Part shown: in pieces, positions 16,964 to 48,891 of the stretch
Numbering within the stretch: position 1 is the first letter of the stretch
How the letters are laid out: each line of letters begins with the position of its first letter
Assembly: GCF_030269765.1 (NCBI RefSeq)
Contig: NZ_BSTX01000001.1
Coordinates: forward strand, 1,975,571 to 2,039,570
Source: Actinorhabdospora filicis
GTDB lineage: Bacteria; Actinomycetota; Actinomycetes; Mycobacteriales; Micromonosporaceae
Direction: 5' to 3'
Length of the DNA stretch: 64,000 bases
Made by a program: the position numbers and the translations under genes
The notes under the pieces: model-generated
Told to the model about the DNA's origin: nothing
The model's database searches: none
What the model saw: the letters and a program-made list of their open reading frames with translations, nothing else

Positions 16964-19690
16964 ATGAGATCAACGCTGCGCGCGTGCGTTTCGGCGCTCG
17001 CGCTGGCCGCCGTGTCCCTCGTCGTGGTGCCGGGGTCCGCCCTGGCCGAGCCGGTTCCGGCGACGGACGTGGAGATGGCCTTCCCCGCCGGCCCTCCCGT
17101 GGATCTCGTCGTGGACGACGCCCGCGGGCTCGTCTACCACGCCTCGCCGACCGGCCTGACCGTCCTCGACTTCGACGGCACCGTCCAGCGCACCATCGCC
17201 GGGAGCCTGCCGTGGCGGACGCTGACCATGAGCGCCGACGGTTCGCGGCTCTACGCGACGGCACGCTGGAAGAACGCGATCGACGTGATCGACACCGCGA
17301 CCTGGGAGCTGAGCACCGTCCGGCTCCCGGCCACCCACTGCCTGATCTCGGCCGAGTTCACCGGCGGCCTGCTCTGGTACTCGTACTTCACCTGCGGGAA
17401 CGGCAAGATCGGCTCGCTGGCGTCCTACGATCCCGCGACCGGGACGGTCACCGAATCGGGCCTGAGCGCACCGGCGGGCAACCTCACGGCGCTTCCCGGC
17501 CGTCCGGACCGCCTGGTGCAGCGAGACTGGAACGGCGAGAAGCAGCGACTCCGGATCTTCGACGTCTCCGGCGCTCCCCGCGAGGTGGCCGTCAGCTCGT
17601 TCCTCACCTCGCACTGCGGGGACGTGGCGCTCATCGACGGCGGCGAACGGCTGGCGCTGTCCTGCAATCGCGCCTACGACCTGGAGATCTTCGATACGGC
17701 GACCCTGACGTCGACCGCCACGAAGCTCACGGAGAACCACGGGGGGACACTCGCGGTGTCCCCCGACGGCGCGTACTTCGCCGTGGGAGGCCCGCTGAAC
17801 GGGCCGGGCACGCACGTCGAGATCGTGAAGGCCGCCGACATGTCGACGGTGCGGATCTACGACTACCCCGGGGCCGCCGGCTTCTACGAGCACCCGATGG
17901 CCTGGCTCGGCGACGGGCGGCTGATGACCTTCCACGGCAGCCGTCTTCGCCTGCATCTGGAACCGGCCAAGTACATCACCGACACCTACGCGGCGGCGCT
18001 GTGGAAGGCCGTCCCCTACGGCGAGGCCGCGGTCCTGAGGGGCTACGTGCGCGGCGGCCCGGACCGGGTCCGTGAACTCACCGTCACGCGTGAAGACCGG
18101 CTCGGGCGGCACCCACTCGGGCGACTGGCCACCGGCCTCCAGGGCGGATTCGAGTTCACCGACGCGGGAGCGCCGGTGTCCGGCAAGGCCACTTACACCT
18201 TCGACTTCGCCGGGGACGCCTACGGGACCGTCGCGAGCGTGTCCGTGACCGTCGCGACTCAGGCGGTTCCCTTCGACTTCAACGGCGACGGCATCGCCGA
18301 GGCCGTCGTCGGCACGCCCGGTGAGGATGACGGATCCATTACCGACACCGGCCAGGTGCACGTGTTCCCAACGACGACGGCCGGAGTGACCGCGGGTGGC
18401 AGCCTCGCGTTCGACCAGAGCTGGGCCGGTCTCGTCGGCGACAACGCCCCTGGGGACCGGCTGGGCGCGGCCACCGCGTCCGGTGACTTCAACGGCGACG
18501 GTTTCGCCGACCTCGCCATCGGTGCGCCCGGCAAGGACGCGTTCGGCGCGGCCGACTCCGGCGCCGTGATCGTCGCGTACGGTTCGGCGTCCGGCCTGAC
18601 CTCGGCCGGTTCGGTGATGCTGACACCCGACAACGCGCCCGGAGCGCTCACCGGGCACGCCTTGGCGGCCGCCGACTTCAACACCGACGGGATCGACGAA
18701 CTCGCGGTCGGCGCGCCCGGAACGGGATCGGGCACCGTGTACCTGTACACCGGGAATCCCTCCGGTCTCTCGAACCCGCATGCGCTGTACCAGAGCAGCG
18801 ACGAGATCCCCGGACGCGGCGGGGGCGGCAACGCCTTCGGCTGGTCCCTGGCCGCCGGGCGAGTGCAGGGTCCGCACGTCAACCCGGCTCTGGCGATCGG
18901 CGCGCCACAGGACAGGGAGGACGCCGAACGGTCCACCGGCTCGGTGACCGTCCTCTACGGCCTTCCCTTCCTGCCCGGTCAGACGGTGTCGAAGGCGCAG
19001 CGCTTCACGAAGGAGACGCCCGGCGTGCCGGGTACCGCAGGTCCGCACGATCCGAAGACCGGGGACGGCGCCGACGAATTCGGGCTCAAGGTCGCCATCG
19101 GCGACTTCAACGGCGACGGCGATGACGACCTCGCCGTCTCCGCCCCCGGCACCAACGTGACCAGCGGCGGCAAGAAGCGGGCCGACGCCGGATCGGTGAC
19201 GGTCCTCTACTCCGACGGGTACGAGATCGGCACCACCGGCGCCAAGGAGGTCACCCAGGACACCGACGGCATCGTCGGTCTCCCCTACGACAACGACTTC
19301 TTCGGCGACAACCTCGCCACCGGGGACACCAACGGCGACGGCGCCGACGAACTGGCGATCTTCTCCTACGGCGACGAGTACGTGACGATCACCCCGGGCG
19401 CCACCAGTGGCCTGGCCTTCACCTCGACGACCGCCTGGACTCAGGACTCACCCGGCATCCCCGGCTCGCACGAATCCGGCGACAAGTGGGGCGCGAGCCT
19501 GCGGTTCCTCACCGGCGCCAAGCCCGCGCTCCTGGTGGGCGCGCCGGGCGAGGACGACCGGCAGGGCGCGTTCACCGTCGTCTACATCGGGCCGAAGGGA
19601 CTGACGGGGGACGGCGCGCGGTACTTCGGGGAGGGCACACCGGGCGTACCGGGCGAGCCGGAGAACGGCGACGGGTTCGGGACCTTCTAG
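16964..19690 (+). CDS. secreted YVTN-propeller / Ig-like / FG-GAP-repeat protein (paralog L1)
   Basis: Signal peptide MRSTLRACVSALALAAVSLVVVPGSALA. N-terminal YVTN-type repeats (LYATARWKNAIDVIDTAT). C-terminal FDFNGDGxADxAxGAPGxD FG-GAP repeats. Conserved C-terminus ...GDGFGTF. Confidence 0.85.
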   Translation: MRSTLRACVSALALAAVSLVVVPGSALAEPVPATDVEMAFPAGPPVDLVVDDARGLVYHASPTGLTVLDFDGTVQRTIAGSLPWRTLTMSADGSRLYATARWKNAIDVIDTATWELSTVRLPATHCLISAEFTGGLLWYSYFTCGNGKIGSLASYDPATGTVTESGLSAPAGNLTALPGRPDRLVQRDWNGEKQRLRIFDVSGAPREVAVSSFLTSHCGDVALIDGGERLALSCNRAYDLEIFDTATLTSTATKLTENHGGTLAVSPDGAYFAVGGPLNGPGTHVEIVKAADMSTVRIYDYPGAAGFYEHPMAWLGDGRLMTFHGSRLRLHLEPAKYITDTYAAALWKAVPYGEAAVLRGYVRGGPDRVRELTVTREDRLGRHPLGRLATGLQGGFEFTDAGAPVSGKATYTFDFAGDAYGTVASVSVTVATQAVPFDFNGDGIAEAVVGTPGEDDGSITDTGQVHVFPTTTAGVTAGGSLAFDQSWAGLVGDNAPGDRLGAATASGDFNGDGFADLAIGAPGKDAFGAADSGAVIVAYGSASGLTSAGSVMLTPDNAPGALTGHALAAADFNTDGIDELAVGAPGTGSGTVYLYTGNPSGLSNPHALYQSSDEIPGRGGGGNAFGWSLAAGRVQGPHVNPALAIGAPQDREDAERSTGSVTVLYGLPFLPGQTVSKAQRFTKETPGVPGTAGPHDPKTGDGADEFGLKVAIGDFNGDGDDDLAVSAPGTNVTSGGKKRADAGSVTVLYSDGYEIGTTGAKEVTQDTDGIVGLPYDNDFFGDNLATGDTNGDGADELAIFSYGDEYVTITPGATSGLAFTSTTAWTQDSPGIPGSHESGDKWGASLRFLTGAKPALLVGAPGEDDRQGAFTVVYIGPKGLTGDGARYFGEGTPGVPGEPENGDGFGTF

Positions 19691-25859: not shown

Positions 25860-28800
25860 TCACCGCTCCCGGATCGCCCGCTCCACCGCGCTGACCTGGT
25901 CGGCGAGCAGCCCGACCGCGCCCACGGCGCGGGCGAGCGGGTCGTCACCGCTGCCGCCGAGGGCGCGGGCGCGCAGGTAGCCCTGGCGGACCTCGTCCCA
26001 GCGGCGGGACTGCTCCTCGGAGAGGCGCCCGCGCAGGGCGGCCAGCTTCAGCAGGTTCGACTCGGCGCCGCTGGTGAGGGTCTGGGCCTCACCGGCGTAG
26101 TGGTCGTCGATGACGGCTTCCAGCTCCTCGTCGTTCATGGCGGGCACGATCCGCTCGGCGAGCTTGTTCATGTTGCGGTAGCTGCCCTGGAGCTGGAACG
26201 GGGGTTCCACGCGGGTGTCGTCGGACTGGGCCGCGGAGGCGATGTAGGCCTGGTTGTTGGCCAGGACGACGCGCTGGACGCGGCGGAGCTTACGCAGGAC
26301 GGACAGGATCCGCTCCAGCTCGGTGGCGGTGTAGGGGTGGGACAGGGCGTCGGGTGAGGCGGTGGAGTCGCCGTCGGCAAGGCGTACCAGAAGTTCCACG
26401 TCGCCGCGCTCGCGAGTGGACAGTGGCGCCAGCACGGGGTTCGAGGTGAGCGAGTTCTCCACATAGGACAGTGCGAACAGCTCCTCGCGGCCGGACAGCA
26501 CGTCGCCCAGGTTCCACACGTCGGCGCGGTTGGCGAGCATGTCGGGGATGCGGAAGCGCTGGCCGCTCTCGGTGTAGGGGTTGCCGGCCATGCACACCGC
26601 GAACCGCTTGCCGCGCAGGTCGTAGGTGCGGGTGCGGCCCTCCCAGACGCCCTCCATGCGGCGCTGGCCGTCGCAGAGGGAGATGAACTTCTGCAGCAGT
26701 TCCGGCGAGGTGTGCTGGATGTCGTCCAGGTACAGCAGGACGTTACTGCCCGCCTCCAGCGCGAAGTTGATCTTCTCCACCTCCTGGCGGGACGTCGCGT
26801 CGGGCGCCTCGGCGGGGTCGAGGGAGGTGACGTGATGGCCGAGGGAGGGCCCGTTCACCTTCACGAACACCAGACCGAGGCGGGAGGCGACGTACTCCAT
26901 GAGGGTCGTCTTGCCGTAGCCGGGCGGGGAGATCAGCAGCAGCATCCCGGACTGGTCGGTGCGCTTGTCGTCGCCGGCCGCGCCGATCTGCTTGGCGAGG
27001 TTGGCGCCGATCAGCGGCAGGTACACCTCGTCCAGGAGGCGGTTGCGGACGAAGGAGGTGAGCACCTTCGGCTTGTACTCCTCCAGCCGCAGGCGATCGC
27101 GTTCGGCGCCCAGCAGGACGTTGCGGGCGCGCTGGTAGTCGCGGAAGCCGGGCACGCGCTCGCGGCGGAAGCGGGCGGTGCGGGCCAGGACCTCGTCCAG
27201 CCGGAAGGACAGGCGGCGGCCCTCGACGCGGGCGTGCGTCCCCAGTAGACCGTCCACGGTGGCGGTGAGGGTGGCCGAGGAGTCGCGGCGGGCGACGTCC
27301 TTGCCGAGCGCCTCGATCGCCACCGCCTCGGGCAGGTCGGCCGCGTCCCCTTCGGCGCCGGACGCCAGGAACGCGCCCAGCCACGCCGAGGTGAGCTGGT
27401 GGCGGGCGGCCAGGTCGTCCCCGAGGGAGCGCAGGTCGTCCTCGTAGGCGGCCAGGCGGGCGCCCAGGGCGGTCCGGAAGCGCTGCGTCAGCTGCTTGGC
27501 CGCGGCGGAGGTGACGAAGCCGTTGCGGGAGCCGGCGAGTTCCTCGAAGAGGTACTCGGCGGCCAGCGGGGCGTCGTCCACAGTGGGCAGGCCGCGCGAC
27601 TCGGTGAAGGCGGCGATCGCGGCGGCCAGTTCGGCGCGCAGGTCGGCGATGGCGCCGGGCTCGCCGAAGAGCTCCCGGACGCGCGACAGCGAGCCGATGC
27701 GGGTGACCAGGGCGGCGCGCTCGTCCTCGGCGGGCCCGTGGGCCCAGTAGAACTGGGCGGCGGCGCGGGCGGCGGGCGGGTAGCGCAGCAGCCCGGCGCT
27801 CTCGTAGAGGCGCAGGACCACGCGCAGGATCTCGGTGGCGTCGTGGTCGTGGACGCCGCGCTCGTAGCCCTCGTCGTAGCGGGACTCGGCGGTGGCGCGG
27901 ACCAGGTCCGGCAGGCCGTCGCCGACGGCGGCCTCGTGCAGCTGGAGCAGGCGCCCGGCGGCGCGCTCGGCGTCCAGAATGGACGCCGCCAGGTACTCGG
28001 CGCGGTAGACATCGGCGGTCTCCGAGACCAGCACCTGGCCCCAGTAGTCGCGGGTGGCGGCGAAGGCGGGATCGCCGACCACGCGCCGGTAGTCGGTGCC
28101 GGTGAGGGAGAAGGCCAGCTCGCCGTCGGAGGGCACCAGCGTCAGGTCGAGGGGCTGGGTGTTGACCGGGAGGCGGTGGCGGCCCAGCTTGATGGTGTCG
28201 CCGTCGTAGAGGTCCTGCCGGTCGCGCAGGGAGCGCCCGGCCTCCTGGCGGGCGGCCTTGATGCGCCCGGCCAGTTCCTCGGCGCGGACGCCGTCGCCCA
28301 GCGCGCGCAGCTCATCGGCGACCGAGCGGAGCTTGGCCACCATCGGGTCGGTGGCGAAGTAGGTGTTGACCGCGTCCAGCGAGTCCAGAGTGGACACCCG
28401 GCGGTTGACGGAGTCCAGGATGCGCTCGGCGGAGTCGGCCAGCCGCTCGGCGCGGCGGGCGCGCTCGTCGAGCAGGTTCTGCTTGCGGGAGGAGAAGGCC
28501 TCGTAGACGTCGGTGCGCTTGGCGGCCAGCTCGCCGAGGAAGTCGTCGAACTCGCCGAAGCGCGACTCCAGGTTCTCCAGCTGGAGCATCAGGCGGCCGA
28601 GCTGCTCGTCGCAGGACTCGGGCGTGGACGCCGCGGCCAGCGCGCCGGTGACGGCCTGGCCCAGCAGCGCGAACTCGGCGGCGAACTCCGCGCGTCCCTC
28701 CGAGGACAGCAGCTCGCGGCGGCGGGCGTCGAGGGTGGCGCGGGCCCGGTTGACCCCGGCCAGCACCTCGCCGATGCGCTCCAGGATCCCGGTGCGCACG

Positions 28801-30776: not shown

Positions 30777-30863
30777 GTCGGCTCCTCGCCAGGGCAATGA
30801 CGAATAGGCGGGCGGGCACAAAGGAGTGGGACGGACGCCTCCCGGCGTCCGTCCCCAGTGGAC

Positions 30864-33830: not shown

Positions 33831-34922
<1,092 letters not shown>

Positions 34923-36883: not shown

Positions 36884-37494
36884 GCGAGGACTCCTTCGCG
36901 CAGGCGCAGGGCGACGCGGGTGAGGCGGCGGCCCTGGTGGGCGGCGGCTTCGAGGGTCGCGGCGGCGGGGCCCTCGGGGCTGGCGGAGCCGACGTGGGAG
37001 GTGCCGTAGGGGTTGCCGCCGGCGGCGTAGACGGAGGCGTCGGTGTAGCCGGGCGGGACGATGAGCGCGCCCCAGTGGTAGAAGACGTTGCTCAGCGACA
37101 GCAGGGTCGCCTCGGCGCCGCCGTGCCGGTTGTAGGCCGAGGTGAAGGCGGTGACGGGCTTGTCGACCATGACCCGGTCGCTCCACAGCCCGGCGGCCCG
37201 GTCGATGAAGCGCTTGAGCTGCGCGGCGGGCGTCCCGAAGCGGGTGGGGGTGCCGAAGGCGTAGGCGTCGGCCCAGGCGAGGTCGTCGAGCGCGGCCTCG
37301 GGGACGGCGGCGGTGGACGCGAGGTGCTCGCGCCAGCCCGGGGTGGCGTCGATCTCGGCGTCGGTGGCCAGTTCGGCGGCCCTGCGCAGGCGGACCTCGG
37401 CCCCTTCCTCGATGGCCCCGGCGGCGAGGGCCTCGGCGAGGGCGTGGACGGCGCCGGTGGCGCTGTAGTAGATGACGGCGACCTTGACGGTCAT
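36880..37494 (-). CDS. wrbA: NAD(P)H:quinone oxidoreductase, WrbA/flavodoxin-like
   Basis: MTVKVAVIYYSATG flavodoxin-like N-terminus. Stop overlaps the MFS start (GTGA). Confidence 0.85.
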   Translation of the reverse strand: MTVKVAVIYYSATGAVHALAEALAAGAIEEGAEVRLRRAAELATDAEIDATPGWREHLASTAAVPEAALDDLAWADAYAFGTPTRFGTPAAQLKRFIDRAAGLWSDRVMVDKPVTAFTSAYNRHGGAEATLLSLSNVFYHWGALIVPPGYTDASVYAAGGNPYGTSHVGSASPEGPAAATLEAAAHQGRRLTRVALRLREGVLA

Positions 37495-37517
37495 GGCGGT
37501 ACTCCTCGGCTAGGATT

Positions 37518-37547
37518 TAGTTATCCGCATAATAGTTATGCGCATAA
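37518..37547. promoter_or_regulatory. candidate MarR operator (two 15-bp direct repeats)
   Basis: TAGTTATCCGCATAA followed directly by TAGTTATGCGCATAA. The second half contains the self-palindrome TTATGCGCATAA. Sits in an AT-rich divergent intergenic region between wrbA and the second marR. Confidence 0.55.
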
Positions 37548-37569
37548 CCATCCTGTCAAGGAGGACCCC

Positions 37570-38016
37570 GTGGACTTCGACCGCGCCGACGCCGTCAACC
37601 AGGCGATCCGCCTGCTCAGCCTGCGTCACCGCGCCCGCGCGGCGACCTTGCTCACCCCGCTCGGGCTGCACACCGGGCAGGAGGCGCTGCTGCTCGAACT
37701 CGACCGCAGCGGCCCCTCCATCCAGGCGCAGCTGAGCGAGGCCCTGGGCAGCGAGCCGCCGAGCGTGACGCTCATGGTCCGCAAGCTGGAGGGCGCCGGA
37801 CTCGTCCGCCGCGCGCCGTCCGCGGCCGACCGGCGGGCGAGCGTCGTCGAGCTCACCGAGGACGGGAAGGCGCTGGTCGGGCGGGTCAAGGAGCTGTGGT
37901 GCGCGCTGGCCGAGGAGACCGTGGCCGGGCTCTCCGAGGAGACCGTGGCGGGCCTGCCGGAGCTGCTGCGGACGATGACGGCCAACGTCGACGGGCGACG
38001 GTCCGGCCACCGGTAG
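37570..38016 (+). CDS. MarR-family transcriptional regulator (paralog of 35058..35522)
   Basis: GTG start with AGGAGGA RBS. About 45% identical to the other MarR over the HTH (DFDRADAVNQAIRLLSLRH vs DFTRADALNTAIRTIAVRH). Confidence 0.8.
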   Translation: MDFDRADAVNQAIRLLSLRHRARAATLLTPLGLHTGQEALLLELDRSGPSIQAQLSEALGSEPPSVTLMVRKLEGAGLVRRAPSAADRRASVVELTEDGKALVGRVKELWCALAEETVAGLSEETVAGLPELLRTMTANVDGRRSGHR

Positions 38017-38081
38017 GGCCCGGCGTCACCCTCCGCGCCCGCGCGTGATCGACCCCGCCGGGGATCGGGTTCAATGACCCC

Positions 38082-39539
38082 ATGGCCAAAGGCTTCCCGT
38101 ACGCAGACCTGCCCGAGTTCCTCGCCGCGCTCGAACGCGACGGGGACCTGCGCAGGGTCACCGCGTCCGTAGACCCGACCCTGGAGATCAGCGAGATCAC
38201 CCAGCGCGTCGTCCGCGCCGGTGGACCCGCCCTGCTGTTCGAGAACCCCACCCGGGGCGCGATGCCCGTGGCGATGAACCTGTTCGGGACCATCGAGCGC
38301 ACCGCCAAGGCCCTCGGCGTGGCGAACCTGGACGAGATCGGCGCGCGCATCGGCGACCTGATCAAGCCGGAGCTGCCGGTGGGCTGGTCGGGCATCCGCG
38401 AGGGCCTGGGCAAGGTCATGCAGCTGAAGTCGCTGCCGCCGAAGAAGCTCAAGTCGGCGCCCTGCCAGGAGATCGTGTACAAGGGCGACAAGGTCGACCT
38501 GAACCGGCTGCCGGGGCTGATGACCTGGCCCGGGGACGGCGGGATCTTCCACAACTACGGCCTCACCCACACCAAGCACCCCGAGACCGGCAAGCGCAAC
38601 CTGGGCCTCTACCGGCTCCAGCAGCACGACCACAAGACCCTCGGGATGCACTGGCAGATCCACAAGGACTCCACCGCCCACCACGCCGTCGCCGAGCGGC
38701 GCGGTGAGCGGCTGCCGGTGGCCATCGCCTTCGGCTGCGATCCGGTGGTGTCCTACTCGGCCTCGGCGCCGCTGCCCGGGGACATCGACGAGTACCTCTT
38801 CGCGGGCTTCCTGCGGGGCGCGCGCGTGGAGATGGTGGACTGCCTGACCGTCCCGCTCCAGGTCCCGGCCAACGCGCAGGTCGTGCTGGAGGGCTACGTC
38901 GAGCCGGGCGAGCGCCTGCCGGAGGGCCCCTTCGGGGACCACACCGGCTATTACACGCCGGTCGAGCCGTTCCCGGTGTTCCACGTCGAGGCGATGACGA
39001 CGCAGAAGAACCCGGTCTACCACTCGATCGTGACCTCGCGCCCGCCGCAGGAGGACCTCGGGCTGGGCAAGGCCACCGAGCGGATCTTCCTGCCGCTGAT
39101 CAAGCTGATGATCCCCGACATCGTGGACATGAACATGCCCGAGCCGGGCGTCTTCCACAACGCGCTGGTGGTGTCGATCCGCAAGCGCTACCCCAAGCAC
39201 GCGCAGAAGGTCATGAACGCGGTGTGGGGTCTGCACCTGCTGTCGCTGACCAAGCTGATCGTGGTGGTGGACGAGGACTGCGACGTCCAGGACCTGCGCG
39301 AGGTCGCCTTCCGCGCGTTCGGGAACGTCGACTACAAGCACGACCTCCTGCTCACCGAGGGCCCGGTCGATCACCTCGACCACGCGTCCTACCAGCAGTT
39401 CTGGGGCGGCAAGGCCGGGGTGGACGCCACCGCGAAGCTCCCGACCGAGGGCTACACGCGCGGCTGGCCGGACCTGACGGTGATGTCGCCGGACATGGTC
39501 GCCCAGGTCGACCGCCGGTGGAAGGAGTTCGGGCTGTGA
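38082..39539 (+). CDS. UbiD-family (prenylated-FMN) decarboxylase, likely menaquinone-pathway (futalosine-type) decarboxylase
   Basis: 485 aa with UbiD N-terminal consensus (MAKGFPYADLPEFLAALERDGDL...GPALLFENP). Confidence 0.85.
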   Translation: MAKGFPYADLPEFLAALERDGDLRRVTASVDPTLEISEITQRVVRAGGPALLFENPTRGAMPVAMNLFGTIERTAKALGVANLDEIGARIGDLIKPELPVGWSGIREGLGKVMQLKSLPPKKLKSAPCQEIVYKGDKVDLNRLPGLMTWPGDGGIFHNYGLTHTKHPETGKRNLGLYRLQQHDHKTLGMHWQIHKDSTAHHAVAERRGERLPVAIAFGCDPVVSYSASAPLPGDIDEYLFAGFLRGARVEMVDCLTVPLQVPANAQVVLEGYVEPGERLPEGPFGDHTGYYTPVEPFPVFHVEAMTTQKNPVYHSIVTSRPPQEDLGLGKATERIFLPLIKLMIPDIVDMNMPEPGVFHNALVVSIRKRYPKHAQKVMNAVWGLHLLSLTKLIVVVDEDCDVQDLREVAFRAFGNVDYKHDLLLTEGPVDHLDHASYQQFWGGKAGVDATAKLPTEGYTRGWPDLTVMSPDMVAQVDRRWKEFGL

Positions 39540-39564
39540 CCGCTTCTCTACCGGAGGTCCGTCG

Positions 39565-40470
39565 ATGAACGCCGCCGCGCCCGCCGCACGCGTCAACCCC
39601 GTCCGCGCGTTCACGCGCCTGGTGGTGATCGAGCACTCGGTGTTCGCGCTGCCCTTCGCCTACATCGGCGCGCTCACCGCCATGCGCCTGAACCCGCCGG
39701 CCTCCGGCGGGTGGGTGCGGTGGGTGGACCTGCTGCTGGTGACCGTGGCGATGGTGGCGGGGCGGACCTTCGCGATGGCCGCCAACCGCATCATCGACCG
39801 GCACATCGACGCGGGCAACCCGCGCACCGCCAAGCGTGAGCTGGTGACGGGCGCGGTGAGCCTGAAGACCGCCTACGCGGGCTCGGCGGTGGCGCTGGTG
39901 GTGTTCTTCGCGGCGGCGGCCCTGCTGAACCCGCTGTGCCTGTACCTGTCGCCGCTGGCCATCGCCCCGATGGTGCTGTACCCGTACGGGAAGCGGTTCA
40001 CCAACTACCCGCACCTGATCCTGGCGATCGCGCAGGCCGTGGCGCCGGTCGGCGCGTGGCTGGCCGTCACCGGGACCTTCGACGGGGCGTCCCCGGCGAT
40101 CATCCTGGGCGCGGCGGTCGGGCTGTGGATCGGCGGCTTCGACCTCATGTACGCCTGCCAGGACGTGGCCGCCGACCGCACCAACGGCGTGAAGTCCTTC
40201 CCCGCGAAGTGGGGCATCAAGGCCTCGCTGTGGACGTCGAGCGTCGTCCACGTGGTGACCTTCGCGCTGTTCGTGTGGTTCGGGATGAAGGCGGAGTTCT
40301 CGTGGCCGTGGTGGATCGGGCTGGGGCTGACGGCGGCGTCCTTCGTCTACCAGCACTCGATCGTGAAGACCGATGACCTGTCGAAGGTGAACCGGGCGTT
40401 CTTCACCTCGAACGGCTTCGTCGGCATCGCGCTGTTCCTGTTCGCGCTGCTGGACCTGGTCCTGCGCTAG
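39565..40470 (+). CDS. UbiA-family aromatic prenyltransferase (menaquinone/DHNA-type)
   Basis: NRIIDRHID Asp-rich motif, second motif DVAADRTNG, 8-9 TM helices. Confidence 0.85.
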   Translation: MNAAAPAARVNPVRAFTRLVVIEHSVFALPFAYIGALTAMRLNPPASGGWVRWVDLLLVTVAMVAGRTFAMAANRIIDRHIDAGNPRTAKRELVTGAVSLKTAYAGSAVALVVFFAAAALLNPLCLYLSPLAIAPMVLYPYGKRFTNYPHLILAIAQAVAPVGAWLAVTGTFDGASPAIILGAAVGLWIGGFDLMYACQDVAADRTNGVKSFPAKWGIKASLWTSSVVHVVTFALFVWFGMKAEFSWPWWIGLGLTAASFVYQHSIVKTDDLSKVNRAFFTSNGFVGIALFLFALLDLVLR

Positions 40471-40480
40471 CTCTCCGGCG

Positions 40481-40513
40481 AAAGGGGCCGCTCCCGGTGG
40501 GAGCGGCCCCTTT
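40481..40513. terminator. bidirectional hairpin between ubiA-like and R1
   Basis: AAAGGGGCCGCTCCC-ggt-GGGAGCGGCCCCTTT, 15-bp stem. Confidence 0.6.
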
Positions 40514-40517
40514 CGCT

Positions 40518-43190
40518 TTAGAACGTGCCGAAGAGATCGCCGTTCTCGGCGGCTCCGGGCACGCCCGGGGAGTCCTCGCCGAAGTAGGTCGCGCCGGTGC
40601 CGGTGAGCCCGCCGGATCCGATGTAGACGACGGTGAACGCGCCCTGCCGGTCGTCCTCGCCCGGCGCGCCCACCAGGAGGGCGGGCTTGGCGCCGGACAG
40701 GAAGCGCAGGCTCGCGCCCCACTTGTCCCCGGCCTCCTGCGAGCCCGGGATCCCGGCCGTCTCCTGGCTCCACCACACGCTCGCGCCGGAACTGAGGCCC
40801 GTGGCGGTACCGGGGATCACCGAGAGGTACTCGTCGCCGTAGGAGAACACCGCCAGGTCGGCGCGACCGTCCCCATTGGAGTCACCGGCGGCGAGGTTGT
40901 CGCCGAAGAAGTCGTTGTCGCCGGGCAGCCCGACGATGCCGGGGGTGTCCTGGGAGATCTCGGCGGCCCCGGCGGTGCCCAGCTTGGACCCGTCGGAGTA
41001 GAGGATCGTGACCGTCCCGGCGTCGGTGACACCACTGACCAGGCTGCCGGGCGCGGAGGCGGCCAGGTCGTCGCGTCCATCGCCGTTGAAGTCGGCCAGC
41101 GCCACTTCCAGGCCGAACTCGTCGGCACCGTCCCCTGTGGACGGCTCGTACTTCCCGGCCGTACCGGGGACGCCCGGTGTCTCCTTGGAGATCCGCTGCC
41201 TGGGATCGACCGGCAGCCCGTTGCGGCCACCCTTGTAGACCAGCACCGCACCGGTCGACCAGCCCTTGTCGCCGGTGTCGCCGGGCGCGCCCACCGCCAG
41301 GTCGTCGAAGTGATCACCGTCGATGTCACCGGTGGCCAGGGACCAGCCGAAGCGCTCCCCGGCGACCGGGTCGCCCACCGGCCGCAGCCACGTCTTCCAC
41401 ACCGGACCAGTCGGCGTGCCCGAGTAGACCTCGACCCCGCCGCCGGACGTGCCGGGCGCACCCAGGGCGATGTCGTCGCGCCCGTCGCCGTCGAAGTCAC
41501 CGGCCGCCAGGGACCAGCCCAGCGTCAGCCGGGCCGCGGCCCGCGACCAGATCGAGGTGGAGCCCATGGTGGCCAGTCCGTTCGCCGAGCCGTAGAGGAT
41601 CTCGGCCATCCCCGACTCCGCCGCGCCGTCGCTCTCACCGGGCGCGGCCACCGCCAGGTCGGCGTAACCGTCGCCGTTGAAGTCGCCGGAGGCCAGCGCC
41701 CGCCCGAGCATGTCACCGTCCTCATTGGACCCGTCGAGGCCCGGCGTGTTCTGGTCCAGCGCCCGCGAACCCGTCACGGTCACCCCCGAGGCCGTCCCCG
41801 CGAACACGTGGAACTGGCCGGTGTCGGTGGCGTCCCCGGTGTCCTCATCCGGCGTGCCCACCGCCACGTCGGCGTAGCCGTCGGCATTGAAGTCCCACGG
41901 CACCGGCCGCACCGTCACCGTCGCCGTCCACGTCGCCGGGCGGTGCCCGGCGTCCCCGGCGTAGTCGAGGGTGAAGCGGATCGGGCCGGTCAGGCGTCCC
42001 GGGTCGTGCCGGAACGCGAAGGTCCCGTCGGCGGCGGTGGTCACCGTGCTCCGGTAGGTGCCCGAGCCGTCGACGCGGGTCAGCGCCAGCGGGACCGCCC
42101 CGCCCGGGCCGCGCTTCAGCGTCCCGCTCACGTCGAAGGCGCTCTTGTACTCCACCGCCGCCGGTGCCGTGACCTCGATGGACGGCAGGTACGTCCCGGC
42201 GTCGCCCAGCACGAACAGCTTCACCTCGGCCGTCGCCGGATCGCCGCCCAGCGCCAGGATCCGGCCGTCGCCGGTGAAGGCGATCCGGGCCGGCTCCACC
42301 GCGTCCGGCATCGCGTACCGCCGGTTCTCGGCACCCGGCAGCCCGCCGGACACGTCGACCACCGACAGCGCCGCCCGCTCACCGCTCCCGTCGTAGACCG
42401 CCAGGTGCCGCCCGTCCGGGCTCACCGCCACGTCCCACGGCTCGACCACAGTGGACAGCGGCGCGGGATCGCTCAAACCCGGCGCGCGGTACACCGTCAG
42501 CGAACCCGCCGCGCCCGAGCGGACCGCGACCTGGCCGGTGAGCGGCAGGTAGGCCGCGCCGTCGCAGCAGTCCTCACCGGTGAGCTCACCCTTCTGCACC
42601 GGCGTTCCGCCGGTCACGTCGTACAGCGCGACCTTTTCGTAGGGCGCGAGCACGAGCAGCCGCCCCGGCCCCGCCGGGGACAGGCTCACGCCGGTGGGCA
42701 GCGAGAGTCCACTGTCGACGAACGCGCCGGTGGCGGGATCCAGCGAGCCCAGCCCGCCCGCGTAGCTCTGGCAGTCGTGGAAGCCGAACCAGAACCGGCC
42801 CCCGCTGAACGCGCCCGCGTCCGGGCACACCGACTCCGGCAACCCCACCTGCCGGATCGCCAGGGAGGCGGCGTCGATGACCTGCACCCGCGCCTGATCG
42901 CTCTCGATGACGTACACAGTGGACCCGTCGCCGCCGAGGGCGAGCGAGCGCGGCCAGGCCAGCTCGGCGAACGAGCGCTGCACAACGCCGTCCAGGCCCA
43001 CGACGGCGACGGAGTTCCCCGCCGCCACGAAGACCCGCTGCCGGGCGGCGTCCAGCACGAAGTCCGAGCTGTCGGCGGGCAGCGCCACGGCCGTGTAGCC
43101 GGGATCCTCGGCCACGGCGGCGGGCGGGGCGATCAAGAGAGCGGTGGCCAAGGCCAGCGCGGAGACTGTGGCATGGGTGCGCGGTGACAT
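40518..43190 (-). CDS. secreted YVTN/Ig/FG-GAP protein (paralog R1)
   Basis: Start trimmed to MSPRTHATVSALALATALLIAPPAAVA (GGGAG RBS). Same architecture and C-terminus ...GDLFGTF. Confidence 0.8.
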   Translation of the reverse strand: MSPRTHATVSALALATALLIAPPAAVAEDPGYTAVALPADSSDFVLDAARQRVFVAAGNSVAVVGLDGVVQRSFAELAWPRSLALGGDGSTVYVIESDQARVQVIDAASLAIRQVGLPESVCPDAGAFSGGRFWFGFHDCQSYAGGLGSLDPATGAFVDSGLSLPTGVSLSPAGPGRLLVLAPYEKVALYDVTGGTPVQKGELTGEDCCDGAAYLPLTGQVAVRSGAAGSLTVYRAPGLSDPAPLSTVVEPWDVAVSPDGRHLAVYDGSGERAALSVVDVSGGLPGAENRRYAMPDAVEPARIAFTGDGRILALGGDPATAEVKLFVLGDAGTYLPSIEVTAPAAVEYKSAFDVSGTLKRGPGGAVPLALTRVDGSGTYRSTVTTAADGTFAFRHDPGRLTGPIRFTLDYAGDAGHRPATWTATVTVRPVPWDFNADGYADVAVGTPDEDTGDATDTGQFHVFAGTASGVTVTGSRALDQNTPGLDGSNEDGDMLGRALASGDFNGDGYADLAVAAPGESDGAAESGMAEILYGSANGLATMGSTSIWSRAAARLTLGWSLAAGDFDGDGRDDIALGAPGTSGGGVEVYSGTPTGPVWKTWLRPVGDPVAGERFGWSLATGDIDGDHFDDLAVGAPGDTGDKGWSTGAVLVYKGGRNGLPVDPRQRISKETPGVPGTAGKYEPSTGDGADEFGLEVALADFNGDGRDDLAASAPGSLVSGVTDAGTVTILYSDGSKLGTAGAAEISQDTPGIVGLPGDNDFFGDNLAAGDSNGDGRADLAVFSYGDEYLSVIPGTATGLSSGASVWWSQETAGIPGSQEAGDKWGASLRFLSGAKPALLVGAPGEDDRQGAFTVVYIGSGGLTGTGATYFGEDSPGVPGAAENGDLFGTF

Positions 43191-43328
43191 GGCTTCTCCC
43201 TCAGGCCTGCCGGTGACCGTAGGTGCACTACGGGCACAGCGAAGCTCGCCCATGTGAATGGACGTGCGCCACGCCGTGAAAAAGGGCCGCCCCTGAGGAG
43301 ACGGCCCTTTCACTATCGGTATTCGAGG

Positions 43329-46037
43329 TCAGAAGGTGCCGAAACGGTCACCGTTCTCCGGCTCGCCCGGAACACCCGGCGTCCCCTCGCCGAAGTACTG
43401 CGCACCCTCGCCGGTGAGCCCGTTCCGTCCGATGTAGACGACGGTGAACGCGCCCTGCCGGTCGTCCTCGCCCGGCGCGCCGACCAGAAGAGCAGGTTTG
43501 GCGCCACCGAGGAAGCGCAGGCTCGCGCCCCACTTGTCCCCGGACTCCTGCGAACCCGGGACGCCCGGCGAATCCTGGCTCCACCACACGCTCTTGCCGA
43601 AGGCGAGGCCGTCGACCGAGCCCGGGATGACGGAGAGGTAGTCGTCGCCGTAGGAGAAGAGCGCCAGATCGGCGATCCCGTCGCCATTGGAGTCACCGGC
43701 GGCGAGGTTGTCGCCGAAGAAGTCGTTCTCGCCGGGAAGGCCGACGATGCCGGGGGTGTCCTGGCTCATCTCGAAAGCCCAGTCGGTACCGATGCGCGAG
43801 CCGTCGGAGTACAGGACGGTCACCGTCCCGGCATCGGTCACACCGTTCACCGCGCTGCCGGGGGCGGACGCGGCGAGATCGGCCTTGCCGTCACCGTTGA
43901 AGTCGGCGAGGACGACCTTCAGGCCGAACTCGTCGGCGCCGTCACCGGTGCGGGGTTCGTACTTGCCAGGTGAGCCGGGGACGCCGGGGGTGTTCTTGGT
44001 GATGCGCTGGACGTCGTCGCCGAGCCCGCCAGCATCGCCTTGGAACAAGTAGACCGCACCCGTCGACCAGCCCTTGTCCTGTGCATCGCCGGGCACGCCC
44101 ACCGCGAGGTCGTCGCGGCCATCCTGATCAACGTCTCCGGTTGCCAGCGACCAGCCGAATCTGTCACCGAGGGCCTGCTCTCCGCCGGTGTCGTACTCCG
44201 ACAGCTGCATGCGCCAGGCCAGGCCCGTGGGGGTGCCGTGGTACACGCGGACGCGTCCGCCGAAGTCGCCCGGCAAGCCGACGGCGAGGTCGGAGACGCC
44301 GTCGCCGTCGAAGTCCCCGGCGGCCAGCGACGAGCCCAGCCAGTCGTGGGTGTACTTCCCTTCCGGCCACAAGGAACCGGAGCCGCTCGTGGTGAGCCCG
44401 GCGGCCGATCCGTACAAGATCTCCACCATGCCGGAGTCGGCGGTGGTGTCGTCTTCGCCCGGCGCGCCGACGGCGAGGTCGGCGTAGCCATCGTCATTGA
44501 AATCCCCGGACGCGGTGGCCTGCCCGAGCCGGTCGTCGGCCTCGTTGGTGCCGTCCACGCCGGGCGTGTTCTGGTCCATCGCACGAGAACCGGACGCGGT
44601 GACGCCCGAGGCGGTGCCGTAGAGGACGTGGAACTGCCCGGTGTCGGTGGTGCGCCCGTCGTCTTCGCCGGGGGTGCCCACGACGACGTCGGTGTACCCG
44701 TCGCCGTTGAAGTCCCAGGCGGTGGGCCGGACGGTGACCTTGCCGGTCCACCTGGCCGCCGCGTGCTCGGCGTCGCCCGCGTAGGTGATCCTGTACTCGG
44801 CCGAGCCGGTCACGTCGGCCTTCTCGGCGAAGGTGAAGGAACCGTCCGGCGCGGTGGTGACCGTGCTCTGCCGCGTCCCGGCACGGGTGACACGGGTGAC
44901 CGTCACGGTCGCGCTCACGTCGATCCCCTTCACCACACCGGTCAGCGTCACGCTCTCCCGGTGCCCGACCCGGGCGGGTGCGGTGGCGGTGATGGACGTG
45001 GCGGCCTTCGTGGCGTCGCGCATGACGAAGATCGTCGGGGTCCGGGTGTTCCATTCGGTGCCCGCGGCCAGGACGGTGCCGTCGGCGCCGGCGATGACCC
45101 GCCGCGCGTCCATCACCGGGCCGGGCAGGACGTATTCGCGCAGCAGCTCACCGGGCGTGCCGGAGGTCAGGTCGCGCACGCCGACGGCGGCGGAGATGCC
45201 CTCCGTGCGCAGGACCGCCAGGAACCGGTGGTCCGGGCTGACGTCCACGCCCAACGCGCGGTCGTGCTCCGCCATCCGGCGCGGCGCGGCGGTCAGGTCG
45301 TTCGCCGAGTACAGCGCGAGGGCCGTTCCGTCCCCGGGCACCACGGCCACCTCGTCGGTCTTCGGCAGCGCGATCGAGGTTCCGCGCCAGGAACCGCCCG
45401 CGATGGTGCCGAGCACGACGGGAGCCGTTCCCGAGACGTCGATCAGCTCCTGGCCATAAGGCAGGGAGGCGTGGACGAACACCAGCCGGTCCGGCCGGTC
45501 GGGCAGCGCGCGCAGCTCGGTGGCCAGCCCGAGTGAGAGCCCGCCGTCGGTGACCGTACCGGTGGCGGGATCGTAGGACGCGAATCCCGTCCCGGCCCGC
45601 CCGCACTTCTGGTAGTCGAACCAGAGGCGCCCACCGGTGAACACGCTCCGGTTCGGGCAGATCGAGGGGTCGAGAGCCACGCTGCTCTTGGCGTAGGTGA
45701 CGGTGTCGATCACGTTGAGGCGGGGCTTGCCCTCATCGAGGGTGTAGAGGGTGTTCCCGTCGGCGCTCAGACTGAGGCTGCTCGGGAACCCGAGGCCGCC
45801 GGTGATCTCCTTGACCTTCGTACCGTCGAGATCGCGGATGAACACCCAGCCCGCCTCCGCGGTGAGGATGTGCTGCCGTGCCGCGTCATAGGCGAAGTCG
45901 GCGTAGCCGAGAGGGAACGGGATGGAGGTGATCCCGGCATCGGGTACCTCCGCCACCGCCTGCGGTGCGCCGATGAGCACACCGGCGAGAACGGCGAGCG
46001 CCGCCAGGAGGGCGCGCACGCGCGTGCGTCTGTTCAT
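43329..46037 (-). CDS. secreted YVTN/Ig/FG-GAP protein (paralog R2)
   Basis: Signal peptide MNRRTRVRALLAALAVLAGVLIGAPQAVA. C-terminal half very similar to R1. Confidence 0.85.
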   Translation of the reverse strand: MNRRTRVRALLAALAVLAGVLIGAPQAVAEVPDAGITSIPFPLGYADFAYDAARQHILTAEAGWVFIRDLDGTKVKEITGGLGFPSSLSLSADGNTLYTLDEGKPRLNVIDTVTYAKSSVALDPSICPNRSVFTGGRLWFDYQKCGRAGTGFASYDPATGTVTDGGLSLGLATELRALPDRPDRLVFVHASLPYGQELIDVSGTAPVVLGTIAGGSWRGTSIALPKTDEVAVVPGDGTALALYSANDLTAAPRRMAEHDRALGVDVSPDHRFLAVLRTEGISAAVGVRDLTSGTPGELLREYVLPGPVMDARRVIAGADGTVLAAGTEWNTRTPTIFVMRDATKAATSITATAPARVGHRESVTLTGVVKGIDVSATVTVTRVTRAGTRQSTVTTAPDGSFTFAEKADVTGSAEYRITYAGDAEHAAARWTGKVTVRPTAWDFNGDGYTDVVVGTPGEDDGRTTDTGQFHVLYGTASGVTASGSRAMDQNTPGVDGTNEADDRLGQATASGDFNDDGYADLAVGAPGEDDTTADSGMVEILYGSAAGLTTSGSGSLWPEGKYTHDWLGSSLAAGDFDGDGVSDLAVGLPGDFGGRVRVYHGTPTGLAWRMQLSEYDTGGEQALGDRFGWSLATGDVDQDGRDDLAVGVPGDAQDKGWSTGAVYLFQGDAGGLGDDVQRITKNTPGVPGSPGKYEPRTGDGADEFGLKVVLADFNGDGKADLAASAPGSAVNGVTDAGTVTVLYSDGSRIGTDWAFEMSQDTPGIVGLPGENDFFGDNLAAGDSNGDGIADLALFSYGDDYLSVIPGSVDGLAFGKSVWWSQDSPGVPGSQESGDKWGASLRFLGGAKPALLVGAPGEDDRQGAFTVVYIGRNGLTGEGAQYFGEGTPGVPGEPENGDRFGTF

Positions 46038-46110
46038 GTGTCTTCCGGGGGTGTGGGCATCAAGAAGGGCGAGCCCGATCTTATCCCCGGTCGATCTTGC
46101 CCGGCACGGC

Positions 46111-46140
46111 GAAGGCCGCCCGCCGAAGCGGGCGGCCTTC
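46111..46140 (-). terminator. hairpin after R3
   Basis: GAAGGCCGCCCGC-cgaa-GCGGGCGGCCTTC, 13-bp GC stem just downstream of the R3 stop. Confidence 0.6.
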
Positions 46141-46152
46141 GTCCATCACCTG

Positions 46153-48891
46153 CTAAAACGTCCCGAACCGGTCCCCGTTCTCCGGCTCGCCCGGCACGCC
46201 CGGCGTCCCTTCACCGAAGTACTGCGCGCCGTCCCCGGTCAACCCGTTCGGCCCGACCCACACCACGGTGAACGCACCCTGCCGGGAGTCCTCCCCCGGC
46301 GCGCCCACCAGCAGCGCCGGCCTCGCACCCCCGAGGAAGCGCATGCTCGCGCCCCACTTGTCGCCGCTCTCATGCGAGCCGGGGATGCCGGGTGAGTCCT
46401 GGGTCCAGGCCGTGGTCGAGGTCAGTGCGAGGCCGCCGGGGGCGCCGGGGGTCACGGTCACGTATTCGTCGCCGTAGCTGAAGATGGCCAGGTCGGACAC
46501 GCCGTCGCCGTTGGAGTCACCGGCGGCGAGGTTGTCGCCGAAGAAGTCGTTGTCGTAGGGCAGGCCGATGATGCCGTCGGTGTCCTGGGTGATCTGGATG
46601 GAGCCGTCGGCGCTCAGTTCGGTGCCGTTGGAGTACAAGACGGTCACCGAGCCGGCGTCGGCCTGGTCGCCGAGGCGGGTTCCGGGCGCGGACGCGGCGA
46701 GGTCGGCCAGGCCGTCGCCGTTGAAGTCGCCCATCGCGACCTTGAGCCCGAACTCGTCGGCGCCGTCGCCGGTGCGGGGCTCGTACTTGCCGGGGGCGCC
46801 GGGGACGCCGGGGGTGTCCTTCGAGACGCGCTTGACGCGGTCGGTCCACAGGCCCCACTGGTCGGCGTGGACGATGACGACGGCGCCGGTGGACCAGCCC
46901 TTGTCCTCGTTGTCTCCGGGGATGCCGATGGCGAGGTCGGCGTAGCCGTCGGCGTCGATGTCACCGGTGGCCAGGGACCAGCCGAAGCGTTCGCCGGCGT
47001 CATCGGTCGTGGTGGGGAAGCCCTGGCCGCCCTGCCACATGACGCGGTCGAGGCGGAAGCCGGTGGGCGTGGAGAGGTAGGCGAAGACGGCGCCGCCGAT
47101 GCCTGCCTGGGGCGCGCCGACGGCGAGGTCGTCGAGTCCGTCGCCGTTGAAGTCGCCGGAGGCGAGGGCGCGGCCGTAGGCGCCGTGGAAGTACCACTCC
47201 TGCCACAGGGACGTCGAGGCGGTCGTGGTGAGCCCGGCGGCGGAGCCGTAGAGGACCTCGACCATGCCCGCGTCGGTCCAGTCGCCGTCGTCCTCGCCGG
47301 GCGCGCCGACGGCGAGGTCGGCGTAACCGTCGCCGTTGAAGTCGCCGGAGGCGGTGGCCTGCCCGAGCATGTCGCCGGGCTCGTTGGCCCCGTCGACGCC
47401 GGGCGTGTTCTGGTCCATGGCGCGGGATCCGGACGCGGTCACGCCCGTGGCGGTGCCGTAGAGGACGTGGAACTGGCCGGTGTCGGTGGTGCCGCCGTCG
47501 TCCTCGCCGGGGGTGCCCACGACCGCGTCGGTGTAGCCGTCGCCGTTGAAGTCCCAGGGCAGGGTGCGCAGCTGCGTCGAGCCGGTCCAGGTGGAGGGCT
47601 CATGGGCGGCGTCCCCGGCGTAGGACACCGTGAAGGTGACTCGCCCGGCCAGCCCGGTGCCGTCGAAGGGGAACGCGAAGGTGCCGTCGGCGGCGGTGGT
47701 GATGGTGCTCAGGTGGGTTCCGGCGCGGTCGGTGCGGGTGACCGACAGGACCGTTCCGGCGCCGGGGCCGCGGTCGAGGCCGCCGGTGACCTCGAAGGAC
47801 GCGCCGTGCTTCGCCACGGTGGGCACGGTGGCCTTGATGCGCGTGTCGTAGACGGTCGCGTTGTTCAGCACGAACATCGACGCGTCGGAGGTGTCGTAGT
47901 TGTAGCCGCTGACCACGATCCGGCCGTCACCGGTGAACAGCAGCCGGTAGCTCGGGGAGAAGTCCTCGGGCAGCTGGTACACGCGCAGCAGCTCACCGGG
48001 CGTCCCGGCGAGCAGGTCGCGGACGGCGACCGTCGCCGACCGGCCGTGCCACTCCAGCACCGCCAGGTAGCGGCGGTCGGGGCTGATCTCGACCGTCACG
48101 GGGTCGGCGTGCTCGGCGACGCGGACCGGCTCGGCCGACAGGTCACCGGCCGGGTAGATCGCCAGGGGCGAGGAGTCCCACAGGACGACGGCGAGCTCAT
48201 CGGTGGCCGGGAGCGGGATCGCCGTGCCGCAGCAGTTCACGTCGGGGATGGAGTCGAGTTCGACCGGCGTTCCGGAGGTCACGTCGAAGAGCATCGGCCC
48301 GTACGGCGCGTAGCCGCGGATGAAGACGAGCCGGCCGGGGCTCTCCGGGAGAGCCCGGATGTCCAGGGCCAGGCCGACTTTCGCGTGGCCGTCGGTGAAC
48401 TGCCCGGTGGCGGGGTCGAGGGAGCCGAGTCCGACGCCCTCGCCGTAGCAGCGGATGAAGGCGAACCAGAGCCTGCCGCCGGTGAACGTCGCCTCATAGG
48501 GGCACACGTTCGGGATGGGGAAGAACTTCACCGCGAAGGTGGTGGTGTCGAGGGTTCCCACGCGTTCGCGGTACTGCTCCAGGACGTAGAGGGTCTTCCC
48601 GTCGGGGCTGAGGGTCAGCGACCGCGGGTCGTCGAAGGCGGTGACGGTCCTCTGTACGGACCCGTCGAGCCTGACGACGCTGATCACATCGTGCGCGGCC
48701 ACGAAGATCCGCTGGTGGAGGGTGTCGTAGGCCGCGTCGCGCACTTCGGTCGGGAAGGGCGCCTCGGTGTAGGGCGGCGGTTCCTCGGCGGCGGCAGACG
48801 GGTCGGCCGTCGCGGCGGCCGGGGCGAGCACGAGGGCGACGGTGGACAGTAAAGCGGCGACGGCGAAGCGCACGCCAAAGCGTCGGTTCAT
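46153..48891 (-). CDS. secreted YVTN/Ig/FG-GAP protein (paralog R3)
   Basis: Start trimmed to MNRRFGVRFAVAALLSTVALVLAPAAATA. C-terminal third nearly identical to L1 (TTAWTQDSPGIPGSHESGDKWGAS). Confidence 0.85.
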   Translation of the reverse strand: MNRRFGVRFAVAALLSTVALVLAPAAATADPSAAAEEPPPYTEAPFPTEVRDAAYDTLHQRIFVAAHDVISVVRLDGSVQRTVTAFDDPRSLTLSPDGKTLYVLEQYRERVGTLDTTTFAVKFFPIPNVCPYEATFTGGRLWFAFIRCYGEGVGLGSLDPATGQFTDGHAKVGLALDIRALPESPGRLVFIRGYAPYGPMLFDVTSGTPVELDSIPDVNCCGTAIPLPATDELAVVLWDSSPLAIYPAGDLSAEPVRVAEHADPVTVEISPDRRYLAVLEWHGRSATVAVRDLLAGTPGELLRVYQLPEDFSPSYRLLFTGDGRIVVSGYNYDTSDASMFVLNNATVYDTRIKATVPTVAKHGASFEVTGGLDRGPGAGTVLSVTRTDRAGTHLSTITTAADGTFAFPFDGTGLAGRVTFTVSYAGDAAHEPSTWTGSTQLRTLPWDFNGDGYTDAVVGTPGEDDGGTTDTGQFHVLYGTATGVTASGSRAMDQNTPGVDGANEPGDMLGQATASGDFNGDGYADLAVGAPGEDDGDWTDAGMVEVLYGSAAGLTTTASTSLWQEWYFHGAYGRALASGDFNGDGLDDLAVGAPQAGIGGAVFAYLSTPTGFRLDRVMWQGGQGFPTTTDDAGERFGWSLATGDIDADGYADLAIGIPGDNEDKGWSTGAVVIVHADQWGLWTDRVKRVSKDTPGVPGAPGKYEPRTGDGADEFGLKVAMGDFNGDGLADLAASAPGTRLGDQADAGSVTVLYSNGTELSADGSIQITQDTDGIIGLPYDNDFFGDNLAAGDSNGDGVSDLAIFSYGDEYVTVTPGAPGGLALTSTTAWTQDSPGIPGSHESGDKWGASMRFLGGARPALLVGAPGEDSRQGAFTVVWVGPNGLTGDGAQYFGEGTPGVPGEPENGDRFGTF

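Follow-up and report, generated by a model that had tools for sequence, protein, structure and literature searches.

What do six long paralogous genes for predicted exported proteins, set as two triplets that face each other, do for an actinomycete? The question is raised by a stretch of 64,000 nucleotides (nt) from Actinorhabdospora filicis (Micromonosporaceae; NZ_BSTX01000001.1, positions 1,975,571–2,039,570), which is called the window in the following. It contains six uninterrupted open reading frames (ORFs) of 890–924 amino acids (aa), in two convergent triplets, L1–L3 on the forward and R1–R3 on the reverse strand. The answer that we favor, with a probability of roughly 0.45, is that the products are Sec-exported, two-headed binding proteins, in which a constant docking propeller stiffened by calcium carries a diversified YVTN-like head on an Ig stalk. 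The architecture, the export signals, the calcium loops, the fusion partners, and the pattern of constant and variable parts fit secreted proteins of this kind. That they bind rather than act as catalysts, which end would bind what, and what any ligand would be, are points that we infer.

The Six Genes and Their Products

The left triplet consists of L1 (16964–19690, 908 aa), a 100% match to Afil01_18990 (P0091), L2 (19808–22516, 902 aa), whose 902-aa form is library protein P0092, and L3 (22637–25411, 924 aa), whose 924-aa form is library protein P0089. The right triplet consists of R1 (40518–43190, 890 aa, Afil01_19130; library protein P0003, also of 890 aa), R2 (43329–46037, 902 aa, Afil01_19140), a 100% match to P0001, and R3 (46153–48891, Afil01_19150), which has 912 aa when counted from its ATG versus 906 aa in the NCBI call. 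Alternative starts are found for L2 (an upstream ATG at 19721), L3 (ATG at 22577), and R1 (43313). All six genes have an ATG start and no internal stop, and the GC content at their three codon positions (~0.68/0.55/0.85–0.95) is as expected for real genes in a 71% GC genome. The full-length proteins are 43–57% identical in pairwise comparison, and a tblastn search of the window with R2 recovers the other five paralogs at E = 0 to 7e-179, which excludes a chance resemblance. The original prediction of six paralogous secreted-type genes of ~2.7 kb, arranged as two convergent triplets and occupying about 16 kb, is thus borne out, the combined length of the genes being 16.4 kb.

The C-terminal half of the proteins is the part that domain models recognize. 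The FG-GAP model (PF01839) scores 122–167 bits in all six, against a cut-off of 22.1 bits, with five or six stretches scored in each protein and E = 5e-36 to 7e-50 (5.5e-36 for L1, 8.6e-49 for L2, 1.4e-48 for both L3 and R3, and 6.8e-50 for R1). Manual parsing gives seven repeats per protein, in line with the estimate of about seven made before. In the AlphaFold2 model of R2, the copy selected for modeling (mean predicted local distance difference test score, pLDDT, of 90.4; predicted template modeling score of 0.77), residues 441–902 (43332–44717, reverse strand) form a closed seven-bladed propeller of the integrin-alpha type. Six of its repeats contain the Dx[DN]xDG motif, the seventh being devoid of it, and a motif search with Dx[DN]xDGxx[DE] predicts five calcium loops in L1 and R1 and six in L2, L3, R2, and R3. 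Between the blades, a conserved loop is seen repeatedly (Q[DN]TPGVPG...E.GDxFG).

The C-terminus itself has a part in this fold. Repeat 1 begins at WDFNGDG without the DxFGxxLAxG strand, and the terminal DRFGTF corresponds to that strand; in the R2 model, beta-bridges are present at residues 899 and 901 with a pLDDT of ~90. All six proteins end in FGTF, as had been noted from the start, and GDxFG[TSAV]F with no more than two residues behind it forms the C-terminal end of 18 of the 19 full-length members found among the best 150 representatives of the profile search described below, including proteins of Phytomonospora and of metagenome-assembled genomes (MAGs). The remaining one, of 730 aa, is truncated inside the FG-GAP domain. 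Because DRFGTF supplies the strand that repeat 1 lacks and the ending is so widely kept, the C-terminus is better understood as a propeller closure than as a sorting signal, and sequence and model together support the earlier suggestion that it completes the last blade. In agreement with this, none of the six proteins has an LPXTG, PEP-CTERM, or GlyGly-CTERM signal, and no hydrophobic tail stands between GD.FGTF and the stop codon.

The N-terminal half has a different fold. In R2, 28 strands make up seven four-stranded blades (aa 36–339) within a YVTN/WD40-like propeller that spans aa 32–340 (45018–45944, reverse strand), and modeling this half separately gives the same folds with a pLDDT of 91.3. 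The YVTN-type propeller proposed originally is therefore present in the model, with a length of about 305–315 aa instead of the ~350 aa assumed. The YVTN repeat model (TIGR02276) is not among the NCBIfam matches at E ≤ 0.01, and one or two repeats resemble the classic YVTN form, for example SLSADGNTLYTLDEGKPRLNVIDTVT in R2. Over the first ~430 residues the only Pfam matches, to SGL, WD40, and Big_3_5, are sub-threshold. The structural matches of the N-terminal half are WD40 proteins, YncE, the B12-binding surface protein BtuG2, and 1L0Q, a YVTN fragment of an archaeal S-layer protein, so that the modeled half matches propellers of the interaction-scaffold type; for the N-terminal domain alone, the best matches are WD40 scaffolds and YncE. 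The propeller is followed by a beta-sandwich (aa 345–438; 44724–45005, reverse strand) with eight strands (aa 348–437) at pLDDT > 90. Its description as Ig-like holds for the modeled fold and not at the level of a family assignment, since Big_3_5 (PF16640) reaches 17.6–17.9 bits in R2 and R3 only, against a cut-off of 35.5 bits. The order of the domains given in the original prediction is correct.

All six proteins begin with a charged N-region, a hydrophobic core of ~15–20 residues, and an AxA site, in accordance with the Sec signal peptide that had been postulated. In R2 the signal peptide comprises aa 1–29 (45951–46037, reverse strand), MNRRTRVRALLAALAVLAGVLIGAPQAVA, with predicted cleavage after ...APQAVA and before E; residues 1–31 have a pLDDT below 50, the N-terminus being modeled as disordered or helical. 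R2 and R3 contain an RR pair without the S/T-R-R-x-F-L-K consensus and the other four contain none, so Tat export was rejected and the Sec route appears more likely. None of the six has a lipobox, no Cys being present after the signal-peptide core. The cysteines are even in number (two or four per protein) and confined to the N-terminal propeller, and two of them are invariant in the nine family members compared, a distribution that fits pairing as disulfides. Neither a transmembrane segment nor a domain for wall binding, of the SLH type or another, was detected in the six proteins from the sequence or with Pfam.

Constant and Variable Modules

The two halves differ strongly in their conservation. 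Among the six paralogs, the identity is 27–44% in the N-terminal propeller, 14–48% in the Ig-like domain, 54–73% in the FG-GAP propeller, and 60–80% over the last 250 aa. Exact nucleotide tracts are also shared: 185 nt of L2 (22025–22209, forward strand) are identical to 24932–25116 of L3 (forward strand), despite an average nucleotide identity of ~63% between these two genes, and L1 and R1 have 62 exact nt in common across the inverted triplets.

Neighbor-joining trees with 100 bootstraps were calculated separately for the FG-GAP halves and the N-terminal halves. The FG-GAP halves cluster by genome, with 100% support for the six of A. filicis and 81% for the three of Phytomonospora endophytica. 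The N-terminal halves do not: only R1–R3 form a clade (100%), while L1, L2, and L3 are interspersed with copies from Phytomonospora and MAGs, and one head of P. endophytica pairs with a head of the other Phytomonospora species (69%). The incongruence of the two trees, together with the 185-nt exact tract, points to gene conversion within the genome, which would homogenize the constant C-terminal module and leave old, distinct heads in place. The R triplet arose more recently, by tandem expansion.

The 3' ends of L1 (19180–19690) and R3 (46153–46663) are also linked by an inverted repeat of 511 nt with 83% complementarity. Recombination between the inverted triplets could, in principle, invert the central segment of 15 kb.

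Relatives and Known Systems

The distribution of the family was established by an exhaustive profile search with the N-terminal module, which yields 1,140 representatives at E < 1e-30. When the best 150 of these are scored with a hidden Markov model of the FG-GAP half, about 19 have the full architecture, among them proteins of Phytomonospora and of Micromonosporaceae MAGs as well as metagenome proteins. Word-index searches had suggested a near-orphan family with three or four full-length relatives, missing even L2 and L3, a view that the profile search overturned. The N-terminal module is widespread in actinomycetes, where the remaining proteins contain it alone (~445 aa) or followed by Big_3_5 repeats, RCC1, fn3, PPC, or PASTA domains. 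Many of these actinomycete proteins (P0095–P0237) end in a conserved W.YF.FT-type motif of an uncharacterized C-terminal domain.

Full-length copies number at least three in P. endophytica and at least two in Phytomonospora sp. NPDC050363, and those of Phytomonospora and the MAGs are dispersed. The genome scan finds full-length copies in Phytomonospora only, two in P. endophytica (separated by ~75 kb of the same contig) and one in P. sp. NPDC050363; its other matches are to the FG-GAP half alone. The locus had been described as an extreme expansion, against which single-copy orthologs in relatives would have spoken; the relatives are not single-copy. The expansion is extreme in a relative sense, since the count of six and the clustering into inverted triplets are all that is special to A. 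filicis, and a multi-copy state is common to the whole small family. In one P. endophytica locus (L001, 14940–15808), frame-shifted FG-GAP fragments downstream of the full-length copy are probably a decayed gene.

The FG-GAP half has known counterparts. Integrin-type propellers have an established place in the VCBS supercluster (PMC8023676). Bacterial ones with calcium motifs in all blades have already been described, and the integrin-type FG-GAP calcium motif is known from 562 bacterial sequences, 149 of them actinobacterial, with a function stated to be unknown (Chouhan et al. 2011, PMC3192720). The propeller of integrin alpha resembles the present one (profile E ~4e-21) in that it consists of seven FG-GAP blades in which the loop from strand 1 to strand 2 is a Ca2+ loop of the DxDxDG type. 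The six proteins differ from integrin alpha in having five or six calcium loops rather than three or four, and in the absence of thigh and calf domains, a transmembrane segment, and a beta-subunit; moreover, their propeller is C-terminal, ends exactly at the closing strand, and is fused to a second, unrelated propeller. The closest FG-GAP halves outside the family are C-terminal in Streptomyces MurNAc-L-Ala amidases (P0009–P0014), galactose-oxidase-like proteins (P0017 and others), and P-domain proteins. The amidases and galactose-oxidase-like proteins are 30–34% identical over the C-terminal half and have the same QxxPGVPG...GDxFG inter-blade loops, but their N-terminal partner is an enzyme, whereas the paralogs have a second propeller.

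For the N-terminal module, the nearest known systems are the Methanosarcina mazei protein 1L0Q (a tandem YVTN propeller with PKD), E. coli YncE, and Bacteroides BtuG2. In 1L0Q a seven-bladed propeller is followed directly by an Ig-like sandwich, as here (profile E = 1.5e-18); the present proteins differ in an Ig domain that is nearer to the below-cut-off Big_3_5 than to PKD, and in constituting a bacterial family with a conserved Cys pair. The Streptomyces "Ig-like domain repeat proteins" (P0059, P0064–P0066; ~1,100 representatives) have the N-terminal propeller and Ig unit (E = 1e-41 to 1e-63, 25–28% identity), but not the FG-GAP propeller; they continue with more Ig repeats and a W.YF.FT-type ending or stop at ~445 aa. 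The YVTN plus Ig unit is thus already known, from the archaeal S-layer protein. What is new is that the two modules are fused, an arrangement restricted to an Actinorhabdospora/Phytomonospora-type lineage, together with the six-copy inverted array and the domain-specific concerted evolution.

Proposed Function and Alternatives

On the basis of these comparisons, the following mechanism can be proposed for two-headed binding proteins. The protein would be exported and its signal peptide removed. The integrin-alpha-type propeller, held closed by its terminal strand and made rigid by structural Ca2+ ions, five or six in number, would constitute the constant module and dock to a target common to all paralogs, most likely a repetitive polymer such as the wall glycan of the producer itself, or another shared partner. 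A docking role of this propeller is suggested by its nearest relatives, in which it is C-terminal on extracellular enzymes, where targeting modules usually sit. The N-terminal YVTN/WD40-like propeller on its Ig-like spacer would be the diversified module, with a ligand of its own for each paralog. Within a genome, the copies of the constant module would be kept similar by gene conversion and the heads would stay distinct; each gene would be a transcription unit of its own.

Several points weigh against this proposal. Having no wall-anchor motif, the proteins may be released into the medium. The trees are neighbor-joining trees of divergent sequences, in which most deep nodes are unresolved. 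The higher conservation of the FG-GAP propeller could, in addition, arise from tighter fold constraints on calcium-loaded blades and from gene conversion favored by similarity, rather than from a shared partner.

It is also possible, although in our view somewhat unlikely, that the proteins serve as multivalent lectins after secretion. Sugars, such as the N-acetylglucosamine (GlcNAc) glycans of chitin, peptidoglycan, or plant and fungal walls, would then be bound between the blades of the FG-GAP propeller, and the N-terminal propeller would add a second specificity or mediate oligomerization. The FG-GAP fold belongs to the VCBS/integrin/tachylectin supercluster, whose members Psathyrella velutina lectin (PVL) and tachylectin-2 bind GlcNAc between blades (PMC8023676). 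The fusion of related FG-GAP propellers to a peptidoglycan amidase and the recurrence of the conserved inter-blade loop point in the same direction. However, the residues of the sugar pocket of PVL or tachylectin are not identified in the FG-GAP propeller, and the same applies in the paralogs to the sugar-binding residues of the bacterial seven-bladed lectins PLL, CV39L, and BP39L, which like PVL and tachylectin-2 are single-propeller proteins. A lectin activity would, in any case, overlap with the two-headed binding model rather than exclude it.

An enzymatic function appears distinctly unlikely. The N-terminal propeller would then be catalytic, of the lactonase, lyase, or cyclase type, with the FG-GAP propeller as a carbohydrate- or substrate-binding module and substrates that differ by paralog. 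The sub-threshold Pfam matches to SGL and Lactonase-type propellers, as well as the attachment of the closest FG-GAP relatives to enzymes, are in favor of such a function. Nevertheless, no enzyme family exceeds the curated cut-offs of Pfam or NCBIfam in the six proteins; FG-GAP and FG-GAP_3 are the only models that do so, and an assignment to a characterized enzyme family (e.g., PL11), which had been named as a possible outcome, did not emerge. The N-terminal module was compared over 135 members: positions of at least 85% identity are limited to G, Y, W, L, P, and two Asp of SxDG-type turns, and no conserved set of His, Glu, Lys, Ser, or Cys, nor any other polar or catalytic residue set, runs through them. 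The other fusion partners of this module, from Big_3_5 to PASTA, are all non-catalytic extracellular domains, and the N-terminal domain alone is closest to WD40 scaffolds and YncE. With no Pfam or NCBIfam model that passes and no catalytic-type residue set, the enzyme assignment was rejected.

Least probable of all is a structural role in the envelope or spore surface, in which the paralogs, with their 1L0Q-like module, would co-assemble through the conserved FG-GAP propeller into an S-layer-like lattice or sheath. In its favor, the structural matches include two surface proteins of Bacteroides, BT1954 and BtuG2, and an interface for assembly that all paralogs share would be compatible with the concerted evolution of their C-terminal domain. 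Against it, the proteins have no LPXTG, lipobox, or transmembrane segment, and no wall-binding domain, SLH or other. A lattice protein would, moreover, not usually be encoded by six genes that are terminated separately and differ so much in their heads, and S-layers are not a known feature of Micromonosporaceae.

Returning to the two-headed binding proteins, the array of binding or recognition proteins suggested by the original prediction is thus a function that we likewise infer. An extension of this proposal, which we consider rather doubtful, is a recognition repertoire, in which a homogenized, genome-specific docking propeller presents old, divergent heads for different environmental or host ligands, such as plant or fungal surfaces, and the inverted triplets would be a substrate for recombination that shuffles heads and bases. 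If true, the locus would be an actinomycete counterpart of the diversified adhesin and receptor families of pathogens. Should the constant propeller turn out to dock to the wall or to glycans, this would also account for why it is fused to amidases and oxidases in Streptomyces; failing that, the locus is a paralog cluster of the ordinary kind, for secreted proteins. The six genes represent a genuine though rather ordinary family of probable extracellular binding proteins. Integrin-type propellers of bacteria have been on record for more than ten years with no function assigned (PMC3192720), and this family is a tractable case, with six intact copies in one cultured strain that appear to be transcribed separately, a confident model, and a clear contrast between the constant, gene-converted calcium propeller and the divergent heads.

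Transcription Units and Neighboring Genes

Reading of the intergenic DNA followed by folding reveals a perfect GC-rich hairpin of 14–18 bp, within about 10–20 nt 3' of the stop codon, for each of the six genes, with folding energies of the stretches between -30 and -45 kcal/mol and z-scores of -2.8 to -7.8. On the forward strand, the terminator-like hairpins follow L1 (19701–19735, 16-bp stem, -36.9 kcal/mol, z = -6.6), L2 (22530–22566, 16-bp stem, -36.2 kcal/mol, z = -7.4), and L3 (25422–25459, 17-bp stem, -42.8 kcal/mol, z = -7.8). On the reverse strand, they follow R3 (46110–46141, 14-bp stem, -45.1 kcal/mol for the stretch, z = -4.4), R2 (43280–43311, 14-bp stem and then a T run, -29.9 kcal/mol, z = -2.8), and R1 (40478–40516, 18-bp stem, -41.9 kcal/mol, z = -6.0). 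The upstream leaders have only a loose motif in common, TGCCC...CACCCC..GGAAC, and consensus promoter and terminator scans of the locus found nothing useful. With a hairpin of its own for each gene and no more than this motif in the leaders, the six genes appear to be transcribed independently of one another.

Between the triplets, ~15 kb encode a DUF3686/AAA ATPase, an MsiK-like ABC ATPase, a MarR regulator, an MFS transporter, an FMN reductase, UbiD, and UbiA, which look like housekeeping-type genes unrelated to the paralogs. A tblastn comparison of 36 window proteins with three Phytomonospora loci found no synteny, and the neighbors of the Phytomonospora copies (DNA ligase, GNAT, ECF sigma factor, nitroreductase, and oxidoreductase) are unrelated to the genes of the window. 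A conserved operon or partner genes were therefore rejected, as was, given also the housekeeping type of these genes, a functional link of the paralogs to the genes between the triplets.

Directly upstream of R3, genes for a LuxR-type response regulator and for a HisKA_3 histidine kinase occupy 48964–51200, likewise on the reverse strand. The intervening 72 nt contain no strong hairpin, so that read-through into R3, or control of R3 by this two-component system, is conceivable. In the ORF list, the kinase gene runs into the divergent gene of a CPBP/Rce1-like protease (50782–51837, forward), which indicates that the start of one of the two is miscalled.

On the opposite side, a tRNA-Thr gene (anticodon TGT; 16820–16895, forward) lies 69 nt upstream of the start codon of L1. 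It is overlapped by a 395-aa ORF with a weak match to DUF6528 (15761–16948, reverse), the true start of which must then be further in. A genomic island at the tRNA-Thr gene is unsupported, the GC content of the window being flat (0.66–0.75 throughout) and the msiK, UbiD, and UbiA genes lying between the triplets.

Within the central segment, the stretch 25860–33604 (reverse) carries the gene of the 1653-aa protein with DUF3686, DUF7902, and AAA ATPase domains, flanked on the same strand by ORFs of 692 and 207 aa that have no match in Pfam or NCBIfam; the three may form one unit. An FMN reductase/flavodoxin-like gene (reverse), UbiD (38082–39539, forward), and UbiA (39565–40470, forward) make up a quinone-biosynthesis-like group in 36880–40470. 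An msiK RNA motif (Rfam RF01747, 53.8 bits; 34922–34979, reverse) is found directly upstream of the gene for the MsiK-like ABC ATPase (33831–34937, reverse).

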